From NCBI RefSeq assembly GCF_024502345.1, contig NZ_JALDNN010000001.1: a stretch of 64,000 bases of DNA. One strand, written 5' to 3'. The position numbers and the translations under genes were made by a program. This document shows, piece after piece, positions 50,730 through 53,152 of this stretch. This stretch comes from Escherichia coli. Its GTDB lineage: Bacteria > Pseudomonadota > Gammaproteobacteria > Enterobacterales > Enterobacteriaceae. Under the pieces are notes generated by a model. That model saw nothing but the letters and a program-made list of their open reading frames with translations, was not told the DNA's origin and did no database searches. Each line of letters begins with the position of its first letter. The stretch's first letter is position 1.

Positions 50730-51200
50730 TTACTCGATGACGACCAGCGGCTCGTCAAATTCTACCGGTTGTCCACTTTCGACCAGAATTGCTTTCACGG
50801 TACCGGATTTGTCCGCTTCGATCTGGTTCATCATTTTCATGGCTTCAACGATGCACAGGGTATCGCCCACGTTGACTTTCTGACCCACTTCGATGAACGC
50901 TTTTGCGTCCGGGCTTGGGGTGCGGTAGAAAGTACCAACCATCGGGGAACGTACGATGTGACCACTGATTTCCGCTGCTGCTGGCGCTTCCATGGAAGGA
51001 ACGGTCGCCGGAGCGGCTGCGTTAGATTGAGCTGGCTGCTGCATCATTGGTGCAGCGTAAGCTTGTTGCATCACAGGGAAACTTGCGGCAGGAGCTGCAC
51101 GGCTAATGCGTACTGACTCTTCGCCTTCGGAGATTTCCAGTTCGGAGATGCCTGATTCTTCAACCAGCTCGATCAGTTTTTTAATCTTACGAATATCCAT
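50730..51200 (-). CDS. accB: Biotin carboxyl carrier protein of acetyl-CoA carboxylase
   Basis: ORF track 156 aa with biotinylation motif [10 protein letters not shown]. Confidence 0.96.
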
Positions 51201-51439
51201 GAGTGGGTTCCGTACTCTTTGTTTAGTGTGATTGTGACAGGCGTTTCACCGCCGTCTGTAAAGCGTATGCCCCGACAGCTGTATGCATAGCGATAAATTC
51301 CAGCAGGCCGGGACGCCGGTCTATTTTGCCCCAGAGTGTCAATGTTAGACTTGACGGACATTGTGCAGCGATCTGCTGCTATCCTCCGGCAAAAAACAAA
51401 ATATACCTTCGTTGCGCCAATGTCACCTTTTCCGCAGCG

Positions 51440-51480
51440 CAAAAACTGCGTCAGGGAGGACGAGGTCGCACATTATAACG
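51440..51480 (-). promoter_or_regulatory. accBC promoter candidate (-10 TATAAT on minus strand at 51472-51477), giving a leader of roughly 275 nt
   Basis: Only the -10 hexamer is read directly; position fits the known long accB leader. Confidence 0.3.
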
Positions 51481-52177
51481 ATTTCGTAGCAATTGGCAGC
51501 TAAATACTGGTCTTATCAGGGAAGATAATCAACAGCTAACATGTAAATAACCTTCAACACCGTGTAATTTGCAACAAGCCGCACAATTCACGAAATTAGC
51601 GCCATCATCGACGGAACTTCTTATAACGTAAGGTGAAAAGCTGTAAAGCCAGCCCTGCGAAGATGAGGGGCTGCAATGAGATAATCTTCACAGACCACAA
51701 ATAATGTAGGGATGCCAGGATCGCGACAAGATAGACGACATTACGCAGCGGTTGCTGGGGATTACCCAATTTTCACTGCATCGTCTGGATAGATGTGAAT
51801 GCTAAAGCACGCAAAATTAACCGACTGACAATGCACAGCATTAAATACGTCCGAGTGATTAATTTGTAGTCAAATAAAATCAGATTATTCACCTCATGGT
51901 ACCAGAAATAAGTAAGGGGTTAAGCGTAGCGTCGCCCAGGCAAAGCACCATAAACCTAACAGGCGACGGAGGCGTATCAATAATAGCTGTTTAGTGGAGT
52001 ATCAATGCGCATCAATTTATGGTCAGTCGAAATCATGACTTTCCAGTTTGGATTATGTTGTACAACTTCCTGACCAAGGTGTTCGACGAAAGCTGTCCGG
52101 CTAACCGCTTTTCCCGTTAACCGATTGAATAATGATTTCAAAATGAGTTCCCTCTCTTATTATTCCTTGCTAAATGG

Positions 52178-53152
52178 TTAGTTAACCTTCACCAGCGTGC
52201 GACCCTGGGTCTGGTTATTAATGATGGCCTCGGCAAAGTTCGGTGCCTCTGACAGAGATATCTCTTTTGCCGCCTGGGTATAGAATGATTCCGGTAAATC
52301 GGCGACCAGTCGCTGCCAGGCTTGTGCGCGGCGTTCTGGTGGCGTCATTACTGAATCCACCCCTTGCAAACGGACATTACGCAGAATAAATGGCATGACC
52401 GTGGTTGGCAGAGTAAAACCACCCGCCAGACCACAGGCCGCCACGCAGCCGCCGTAATTCATTTGCGCCAGCACTTTTGCCAGCACTTTGTCGCCAACAG
52501 TGTCAATTGCCCCAGCCCAGACTTGTTTTTCCAGAGGACGGGATTCGGCAAACTCATCACGAGGGAGAATACGGCTGGCACCTAAACTTTTCAGATATTC
52601 ATGGGTACTTTCGCGACCGGAAACGGCAACGACCTGATAACCCAACTTATGCAGCAGCGCCACGGCGGTACTGCCGACGCCACCACTGGCACCCGTCACG
52701 ACAATCTCCCCGTCCTGCGGGCGAACACCGGCATCTTCCAGCGCCATTACACACAGCATGGCGGTAAAACCGGCAGTACCGATAATCATTGCTTTACGCG
52801 CGTCCAGCCCTTGCGGCATGGCAACCAGCCAGTCACCTTTCACTCGCGCCTGCTCCGCCAGCCCACCCCAGTGGTTTTCACCAACGCCCCAGCCAGTGAG
52901 TAACACCTCCTGACCGGCATGAAAACGCGGATCTTCGCTGGTGCGTACAGTTCCGGCAAAATCGATCCCAGGAATCATCGGAAAATTACGGATGATTTTT
53001 CCCTTACCGGTAATCGCCAGCGCATCTTTATAGTTCAGGCTCGACCAGTGAACATCGACCGTGACATCGCCCTCCGGCAGGCGACTTTCGTCCAGAGTCT
53101 GTACTGATGCGAGAGTTTTGCCGTCCTGCTGTTCTAAAAGTAACGCCTGCAT
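52178..53152 (-). CDS. acuI: Acrylyl-CoA reductase AcuI (YhdH), NADPH-dependent
   Basis: ORF track 324 aa, MDR-family. Confidence 0.92.
   Translation of the reverse strand: MQALLLEQQDGKTLASVQTLDESRLPEGDVTVDVHWSSLNYKDALAITGKGKIIRNFPMIPGIDFAGTVRTSEDPRFHAGQEVLLTGWGVGENHWGGLAEQARVKGDWLVAMPQGLDARKAMIIGTAGFTAMLCVMALEDAGVRPQDGEIVVTGASGGVGSTAVALLHKLGYQVVAVSGRESTHEYLKSLGASRILPRDEFAESRPLEKQVWAGAIDTVGDKVLAKVLAQMNYGGCVAACGLAGGFTLPTTVMPFILRNVRLQGVDSVMTPPERRAQAWQRLVADLPESFYTQAAKEISLSEAPNFAEAIINNQTQGRTLVKVN

Follow-up and report, generated by a model that had tools for sequence, protein, structure and literature searches.

The gap between acuI and accB in Escherichia coli, 977 bp at positions 51201–52177 of the window (the whole 64,000-nt stretch of DNA that was analyzed), contains the decayed remains of three genes together with the conserved promoter and leader of the accBC operon. 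The decayed genes are a truncated orphan gene, msrQ, and aroQ, and both flanking genes lie on the minus strand. It is highly probable, in our judgment, that the gap is a gene graveyard, consisting of yrdF, yrdE, and an aroQ scar, that became joined to a working accBC promoter and leader. The content of the gap is ordinary and its main part is already known, namely the K-12 pseudogenes yrdF and yrdE and the accBC promoter and leader. What may be new, and is modest, is the origin of the long accBC leader from aroQ, the reconstructed history of the locus, and the very high conservation of 404 nt within the species.

Contents of the acuI–accB gap

A preliminary description of this DNA had pointed to about 1 kb that lacks ORFs of 60 or more amino acids outside the accB leader, and this was borne out. 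The sole ORF of at least this size that touches the gap encodes 89 amino acids (51173–51442, minus strand); it lies inside the leader and overlaps the accB start. The next largest ORFs encode 55 (51336–51503, plus strand), 54 (51605–51769, minus strand), and 54 (51977–52141, minus strand) amino acids. Among 5426 complete E. coli genomes, 5425 carry the interval, usually at 95%–99% identity, which indicates a stable feature rather than an artifact of assembly.

The same description took the ~700 bp outside the leader to be unannotated, which is incorrect. The K-12 record NC_000913.3 places two pseudogenes there, yrdF (b4697; 3404495–3404637, equivalent to window positions 52141–51999) and yrdE (b4646; 3404638–3405031, equivalent to 51998–51605), and states neither a product nor an origin for them. 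The window comes from another strain, but the features are identical after coordinate conversion. The whole interval is 98.7% identical to K-12, and the pseudogene portions differ from K-12 by ∼2%. Both loci were called pseudogenes in a 2020 paper (PMC7648144). In other strains, RefSeq annotates the equivalent of 51605–51992 as a pseudogene for the YedZ/MsrQ heme-binding subunit or for a “cytochrome b family protein.” The features of the gap and its flanks are listed in Table 1.

Table 1. Features of the acuI–accB gap and the flanking genes, in window coordinates
Feature	Position	Strand	Details
acuI (yhdH)	52178–53152	minus	stop codon ends at 52178
Spacer, acuI stop to orphan-gene start (TTG, 52141)	52142–52177	minus	36 bp; GAGGG Shine-Dalgarno-like motif
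yrdF pseudogene	51999–52141	minus	first 47 codons of the 276-aa DUF1444-like orphan gene
Deletion junction	51995–51998	minus	TCCA filler (4 nt) that separates yrdF from yrdE
yrdE pseudogene (msrQ/yedZ remnant)	51605–51994	minus	residues ∼69–196 of the 199-aa MsrQ
Spacer 3′ of the msrQ stop	51534–51604	minus	invariant within E. coli, variable between genera
Candidate promoter block P1, GTTGATTATCTTCCCTGATAAGACCAGTATTTAGCTGCCAATTGCTACGAAATCGTTATAATGTGCGAC	51465–51533	minus	69 nt, ends in TATAATGTGCGAC; almost invariant in 12 Enterobacteriaceae
Promoter-like pair P2	51398–51426	minus	GTGACA 51426–51421, 17 nt, TATTTT 51403–51398 (consensus scan)
5′ part of leader (ancestral aroQ 5′ UTR)	51362–51464	minus	from alignment with relatives
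aroQ (type II dehydroquinase) scar	51223–51361	minus	ATG 51361–51359 plus ∼20 nt; last 14 codons; TAA 51225–51223
aroQ stop to accB ATG, accB ribosome-binding region, AAAGAGTACGGAACCCACTC	51201–51222	minus	conserved throughout Enterobacterales
accB	50730–51200	minus	ATG 51200–51198; followed by accC

yrdF is the 5′ fragment of an orphan gene

The yrdF sequence shares ∼99% identity with the initial 143 nt of an intact gene for a 276-aa protein, as found in two of the loci compared (L005 and L013). The same 36-bp spacing precedes the intact gene in strains that bear it. With 47 of the 276 codons present, the full-length ORF is absent from the window. The fragment runs out of frame into msrQ sequence, which yields the 54-aa ORF at 51977–52141 from 47 codons of the orphan gene and seven msrQ codons. 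The two sides of the junction share the imperfect microhomology CAC[C/T]AAAC[G/A]G, and for this reason the breakpoint is defined only to within a few bases.

Of 5426 E. coli genomes, 670 (12%) carry the orphan gene intact, as does E. albertii. In some of these strains, RefSeq annotates it as an 831-nt “DUF1444 domain-containing” gene immediately after acuI. The intact protein (WP_000202360 type) matches Pfam DUF1444 weakly (E = 0.0024, 17.9 bits, cut-off 23.8). Searches of PHROGs, PADLOC, and PDB sequences gave no matches, and just 11 homologue clusters were found among 5.8 billion proteins. One relative of the protein is located amid plasmid-type genes (KfrA_N, Aca2).

The preliminary description raised the possibility that the gap holds small proteins, an idea that the data do not support. 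The best candidate is the 54-aa ORF that begins in yrdF. It has inherited its start codon, 36-bp spacer, and GAGGG motif intact from the full-length gene, and it is open in all four strains with the truncated locus (the short form) that were examined, so translation is possible. The RefSeq pipeline also annotates it as a hypothetical protein in some genomes. However, the ORF is a composite of one gene fragment and a few out-of-frame codons of another, it is a pseudogene in the curated K-12 annotation, and it matches no Pfam or NCBIfam family. Among the four strains, yrdF carries 3–4 nt differences per 143 nt, and most of the differences seen in the translated ORF alter the amino acid. This gives two to five replacements per pairwise comparison, which points to relaxed constraint. 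In addition, insertion of a KanR cassette between 51565 and 51564, in the spacer downstream from the relics, leaves growth and cell size like those of the wild type (bioRxiv 10.1101/359208). We therefore consider it quite improbable that this or any other short relic ORF encodes a functional small protein.

yrdE is a remnant of msrQ

Two minus-strand frames, when translated and read together, correspond to about the C-terminal two thirds of MsrQ, the heme-binding membrane subunit of the MsrPQ methionine sulfoxide reductase. Against the NCBIfam MsrQ model NF003831, the joined peptide gives an E value of 1.4e-26 over positions 72–193 of 212. Its score of 93.3 bits is under the cut-off of 130 because the match is partial. 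No Pfam hit is obtained at E ≤ 0.01, including to PF01794 (Ferric_reduct), the domain of the family. Over residues ∼72–196, the peptide shares 70% identity with E. coli MsrQ and 63%–66% with the 199-aa MsrQ proteins of Klebsiella, Citrobacter, and Atlantibacter.

At the nucleotide level, yrdE shares about 75%–78% identity with the functional msrQ of E. coli, and the alignment locates its lesions. The N-terminal ∼70 codons are deleted, and a single extra base near 51901 shifts the reading frame. A CGA-to-TGA change at 51775–51773 is common to E. albertii and every E. coli examined. A further premature TGA (51607–51605), which is specific to E. coli, lies three codons ahead of the ancestral TAA (51598–51596). 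Two of the three histidines that are conserved in all intact homologues are now arginine. Intact proteins read WATLHLTSY, LHNFVYL, and IHYLWSV at these sites, and the third motif in the remnant is LHYLWSV. The conserved histidines of MsrQ are heme ligands.

Intact relatives have msrP immediately upstream of msrQ. In contrast, yrdE has no adjacent msrP, and a 5′ remnant of that gene (∼25 codons) occurs only in strains with the intact orphan gene. Given that yrdE lacks a full-length ORF (199–211 aa), an above-cut-off score, two of the histidines, and an msrP partner, it shares partial homology and genomic position with MsrQ/YedZ, but it is a pseudogene and not a functional member of the family.

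Gene order at the locus in relatives

In Klebsiella aerogenes and Citrobacter enshiensis, the gene order is csrD, acuI, msrP, msrQ, (aroQ), accB, accC, with aroQ being the variable member. To survey this arrangement more widely, one genome per species was anchored on AccB and reference proteins were mapped onto the 80 loci returned. The order msrP-msrQ-aroQ-accB is found in 44 of these, usually with acuI first. The genera include Enterobacter, Kluyvera, Pluralibacter, Erwinia, Pantoea, Serratia, Yersinia, Hafnia, Edwardsiella, Budvicia, and Pectobacterium, among others. The order acuI-msrP-msrQ-aroQ-accB is the arrangement in most other Enterobacterales sampled. The aroQ gene immediately precedes accB in 65 of these 80 loci, and the aroQ-accB pair alone reaches Vibrio, Aeromonas, and Pasteurellaceae. 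Among the 80 loci, intact msrPQ without aroQ beside it occurs only in Citrobacter, Superficieibacter, and Phytobacter. The E. albertii locus is in the remnant state.

The intact msrPQ genes of E. coli are located elsewhere, between hiuH and zinT. The MsrQ encoded there has 211 amino acids, and its C-terminal extension is also present in the E. albertii protein. This second locus raises the question of whether the fragment near accB is a secondary partial copy of E. coli's own msrQ rather than a decayed ancestral gene. The remnant is indeed closer to the functional E. coli gene than to the syntenic Citrobacter msrQ (∼66% identity for the remnant alone), and a rough neighbor-joining tree places it with the former. 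However, this similarity fits equally well if the copy at the hiuH locus arose from the accB-linked one within the Escherichia lineage. Moreover, homology to Citrobacter continues unbroken from inside msrQ through its 3′ flank and the promoter into accB, as a single BLAST segment (51994 to 50700) that is 81% identical overall to the C. enshiensis msrQ-accB stretch. The remnant also has the C-terminus of the 199-aa type (KKFRQWWR, now KKFRR and a stop) without the extension of the 211-aa protein, and in genomes with the intact orphan gene the 5′ end of msrP lies in the expected place. A secondary copy is therefore very improbable. On alignment and position, yrdE appears to be the positional orthologue of the accB-linked msrQ, still in its ancestral place.

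A 196-aa MsrQ (P0002) with the same C-terminus as the remnant was considered as a living orthologue and rejected. The contigs that encode it (L010 and L011) are mosaics and probable assembly chimeras. They are 100% identical to E. coli from ∼51721 to 51465 and 50%–80% identical on either side, with the switches falling in highly conserved stretches, and the coverage of L010 is <1x.

Two forms of the locus in E. coli

The genomes with an intact orphan gene (the long form) have an msrQ remnant of 303 nt, compared with ∼390 nt in the window, and they lack the equivalent of window positions 51898–51998. The short form, in turn, lacks most of the orphan gene. It follows that neither form could have given rise to the other. 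In the long form, a 168-bp spacer after the orphan gene resembles the msrP upstream region plus ∼25 msrP codons (alignment score 77, shuffled sequences 16 ± 2.4). On a metagenomic contig (L102), acuI is followed by an orphan gene that is 76% identical and next by the beginning of msrP.

Between E. coli and E. albertii, divergence over the initial 143 nt of the orphan gene is just 3.5%, compared with 25% at the third positions of acuI. The shared string “SLFNRL,” which occurs in the C-terminal extension of E. coli MsrQ and at the N-terminus of the orphan protein, was also considered as a recombination junction. Its local DNA score of 14 is no higher than expected by chance (shuffle mean 14.7), and the idea was rejected.

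Promoter, leader, and aroQ scar

The preliminary description proposed a −10 element at 51472–51477 on the minus strand for a long accBC leader. The TATAAT at this site is real, and its candidacy is strengthened by strong conservation across species. In a consensus scan, it pairs with CTGCCA at 51499–51494 with a spacing of 16 nt. With up to five mismatches allowed, a 21-mer around this −10 element occurs in 51 of the 83 scanned sequences, only one of which lies outside Enterobacterales. In P2, TGAC and TAT.TT form the main invariant columns among 43 Enterobacterales; the spacing is free of gaps and the spacer sequence varies. With their hexamers, correct spacing, and cross-species conservation, P1 and P2 both have the attributes of sigma-70 promoters and are candidate promoters for accBC, and either may be the pair that fires. 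The plus-strand sequence CTGGTC (∼51508–51513), within the P1 block, resembles a FadR half-site.

The leader was aligned from the msrQ stop to the accB ATG in 12 Enterobacteriaceae. Those without aroQ were E. coli, E. albertii, four Citrobacter, Superficieibacter, and Phytobacter, and those with aroQ were Enterobacter, Pseudescherichia, Klebsiella, and Kluyvera. Compared with the aroQ-accB-accC cluster of Gammaproteobacteria, E. coli keeps the promoter, the 5′ UTR, the start and 3′ end of aroQ, and the accB ribosome-binding region, all in order. The difference is that Escherichia has ∼70 nt where the aroQ body of ∼380 nt was, as seen in BLAST comparison with K. aerogenes aroQ and in the multiple alignment. 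The aroQ Shine-Dalgarno sequence GGAG now reads GCAG in Escherichia and GAAG in Citrobacter, both of which are lineages without aroQ. Citrobacter, Superficieibacter, and Phytobacter have lost the gene with different breakpoints. There is no ORF of ∼150 aa that would belong to the AroQ family (PF01220), and the sequence is a scar and not a gene.

The accBC leader was reportedly described by Li and Cronan in 1993 as unusually long and as holding an ORF. Both characteristics would follow from the aroQ scar. In the literature searched, we found no mention of an aroQ scar as the source of the long leader.

Conserved RNA structure was also sought in this region. RNAalifold predicts no consensus pairs in the early leader of 43 Enterobacterales, and the fold of the E. 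coli early leader is no better than those of shuffled sequences (z = −0.9). The invariant columns of the early leader suit promoter hexamers and not RNA structure. A hairpin at the 3′ end of aroQ (GACGGCG...CGCCTGTC) was rejected, since the changes between species, judged by eye, are not consistently compensatory.

Constraint and decay within E. coli

The two parts of the gap differ sharply in their diversity among E. coli genomes. Identity over the 404 nt from the msrQ stop to accB (51201–51604) is 99% or higher in every one of the 5425 genomes, and most genomes were 100% identical in evenly spaced samples of the ranking. For the adjacent 404 nt of accB coding sequence, 4754 genomes reach at least 99% identity and 671 fall at 95%–99%, with none lower. 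In contrast, the msrQ remnant (51605–51998) is at least 99% identical in only 18 genomes; 4137 fall at 95%–99%, 1264 at 90%–95%, and six at 80%–90%. In pairwise comparisons among strains, the remnant differs by 2%–8%, which equals or exceeds the rate at acuI third positions (1%–5.5%). The aroQ scar differs by 1.7% between E. coli and E. albertii.

The promoter block and leader are kept across species, and the relics vary at about the silent-site rate in E. coli. We conclude that ∼51201–51533 is a strongly constrained promoter and leader. For 51605–52177, we infer that the DNA is a nonfunctional relic in which yrdF and yrdE have no role.

An independent small RNA in the gap

The preliminary description also suggested that the gap could encode an sRNA, and this proposal is likewise unsupported. 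The only Rfam hit is Ysr190 (RF02764), with 25.3 bits and an E value of 0.57 in E. coli against a gathering threshold of 66, so that no family reaches its threshold. In three Yersinia loci, the same model scores 96–131 bits; its match there lies between msrQ and aroQ, which is the orthologous site, and the homologous position in the window is 51398–51497. In Yersinia, Ysr190 spans the promoter −10 element and the aroQ 5′ UTR or early leader, and the part that E. coli shares is mostly the promoter itself. Ysr190 is therefore a fragment of the aroQ-accBC leader and not a separate sRNA gene.

Transcript ends provide little more for an sRNA. Term-seq data list just two weak “orphan” 3′ ends on the sense strand, at ∼51809 (K-12 3404827) and ∼51263 (PMC7815308, the data set that accompanies PMC7648144). 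The first is inside the msrQ remnant, indicating that some transcription crosses the relics, and the second is 63 nt upstream of accB. No 3′ end is listed at K-12 3405200–3405299, where the end of a Ysr190-like RNA would be expected, and no terminator-like sites are present in 51000–52400. Although the Yersinia RNA and the two weak ends could be read in its favor, the absence of a consensus structure and the near-silent-site variation of the relics add to the case against an independent sRNA on either strand, which we judge to be very unlikely.

A proposed history of the locus

Since the short and long forms cannot be derived from each other, either two independent deletions or exchange between species is needed. 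The homologies, synteny, lesions, and contrast in diversity are shown by the data, and the order of events given here is inferred. The simplest history begins with an ancestor that had all of the genes and then underwent two independent deletions. This Escherichia ancestor would most likely have carried acuI, the DUF1444-like orphan gene, msrP, msrQ, aroQ, and accBC. A second msrPQ copy, at hiuH-zinT, would be the one that survives intact in present-day E. coli. In the short form, one deletion of ∼1.9 kb would have begun at codon 48 of the orphan gene and ended near nucleotide 203 of msrQ, leaving yrdF and yrdE. These relics would now be drifting as nonfunctional DNA, with transcription that is at most weak and probably results from acuI read-through. 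Exchange between species may also have been involved, as suggested by the low divergence of the orphan-gene 5′ end relative to acuI third positions between E. coli and E. albertii.

Separately, the body of aroQ would have been lost, with the ∼70 nt remaining. The aroQ promoter and 5′ UTR would thereby have become the unusually long accBC leader (51201 to ∼51465), in which the start codon of aroQ and its final 14 codons survive. The functional part would then be limited to the segment from ∼51533 to accB, serving as the promoter, leader, and ribosome-binding region of the essential accBC operon.

A more speculative extension is that accBC retained the promoter, 5′ UTR, and 3′ end of the lost aroQ as a regulatory leader, so that the scar is not mere debris. 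We hold this only tentatively and think it somewhat less probable than the converse. It would explain why the 404 nt are more uniform than the accB coding sequence in 5425 genomes, and also why the scar differs so little between E. coli and E. albertii.

Implications

The “unexplained” 700 bp upstream of the accBC leader are two catalogued pseudogenes, with no hidden sRNA or small-protein locus. Within ∼1 kb, this gap sets neutrally decaying DNA beside extremely constrained noncoding DNA, and it could possibly serve as a calibration for conservation screens in E. coli. The origin by aroQ deletion offers a concrete source for the long accBC leader and supplies boundaries for dissecting accBC regulation. 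If the hypothesis of a retained regulatory leader is true, then the long leader would be a place to search for the as yet unlocated target of AccB autoregulation and growth-rate control.

Conservation and transcription signals upstream of accB

The 404-nt noncoding segment between the msrQ stop codon and accB (51201–51604) is at least 99% identical, and mostly 100%, in 5425 of 5425 E. coli genomes. In contrast, the adjoining 404 nt of coding sequence of the essential accB gene fall to 95–99% in 671 genomes. Thus, the noncoding segment is more uniform within the species than the coding sequence alongside it. The switch from the fast-varying msrQ remnant to the uniform segment occurs exactly at the msrQ stop codon.

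A candidate second promoter pair also lies in this segment, with the TATAAT promoter ∼70 nt upstream of it. In alignment A1, both hexamers of the pair are invariant across 43 Enterobacterales, and their spacing is fixed whereas the sequence of the spacer varies. Published Term-seq data (PMC7815308) report two low-abundance "orphan" RNA 3′ ends, both in the sense direction. The end nearer accB just precedes a short GC-rich inverted repeat of the retained aroQ 3′ end.

Coordinates of features in the window and in comparison loci (L-numbers)
Feature	Location	Strand	Remarks
Term-seq 3′ end	∼51809		K-12 3404827, + strand; within msrQ remnant
Candidate promoter pair (GTGACA, 17 nt, TATTTT)	51398–51426	−	Alignment A1
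Term-seq 3′ end	∼51263		K-12 3405373, + strand; 63 nt upstream of accB
aroQ scar	51223–51361		Inside accBC leader; keeps the ATG and final 14 codons of deleted aroQ
Apparently intact 196-aa MsrQ	L010 230–958; L011 408–904		Same protein; metagenomic contigs, different samples
Orphan protein (276 aa)	L005 2366–3196	−
Orphan protein (276 aa)	L013–L016, L017, L097–L099, L100–L103 (the protein or relatives)
Ysr190 ("Yersinia sRNA 190," Rfam)	L073 3380–3481; L053 3238–3339; L051 3380–3481		Between msrQ and aroQ

Metagenomic contigs with an apparently intact MsrQ

The two metagenomic contigs that encode an apparently intact MsrQ are mosaics. Both L010 and L011 are 100% identical to E. coli over ∼51721–51465 and just 50%–80% identical on either side, and L010 extends into an intact aroQ start. 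Judged from these sequences, the contigs are probably chimeras created during assembly, with the joins in conserved stretches, although they may represent a real recombinant.

The 276-aa orphan protein

The near-orphan protein whose gene start is retained in the window exhibits a presence/absence polymorphism in E. coli, being present in 670 of 5426 genomes. It carries a DUF1444 label with a score under the Pfam cut-off, and only 11 homologue clusters were found among 5.8 billion proteins. No match was obtained in PHROGs, PADLOC, or the PDB. A relative with 63% identity is encoded on a mobile-element-like contig, where its neighbors are KfrA_N, Aca2, and ResIII genes.

E. coli and E. albertii (L017) differ by ∼3% across 51999–52177, which comprises the opening 143 nt of the orphan gene plus a 36-bp spacer, whereas the neighboring acuI differs by 10.7% overall and by 25% at third positions. 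This disparity hints that the segment might have been exchanged recently between the two species. The hexapeptide SLFNRL occurs both in E. coli MsrQ, within its C-terminal extension (RSLFNRLRKQ...), and at the orphan-protein N terminus (KSLFNRLTGK...). A comparison of the functional msrQ locus (L008 6001–6636) with window positions 52100–52141 revealed no DNA similarity above chance behind this shared peptide.

Loss of aroQ and variation in other genera

The aroQ gene is also lost in Citrobacter, Superficieibacter, and Phytobacter (loci compared: L006, L007, L018, L019, L025, L036, L067, and L092). Because the breakpoints differ among these genera, the sequences suggest that aroQ has been lost repeatedly and independently. 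Between E. coli and E. albertii, divergence is 1.7% in the aroQ scar and 10.6% in the early leader.

Other parts of the locus also vary. In several genomes, among them Enterobacter, Cedecea, Phytobacter, and Pantoea, acuI is absent from its place between csrD and msrP (L020, L023, L030, L031, L036, L041, L044, L045, L050, L059, and L061). In Photorhabdus and Xenorhabdus (L043, L046, L052, and L058), acuI is followed directly by aroQ-accB, without msrPQ.

The Ysr190 family

In the three Yersinia loci, Ysr190 (RF02764) covers the −10 hexamer of the aroQ-accBC operon together with the early part of its 5′ UTR. Therefore, what this family describes is probably a piece of an mRNA leader and not a separate sRNA.
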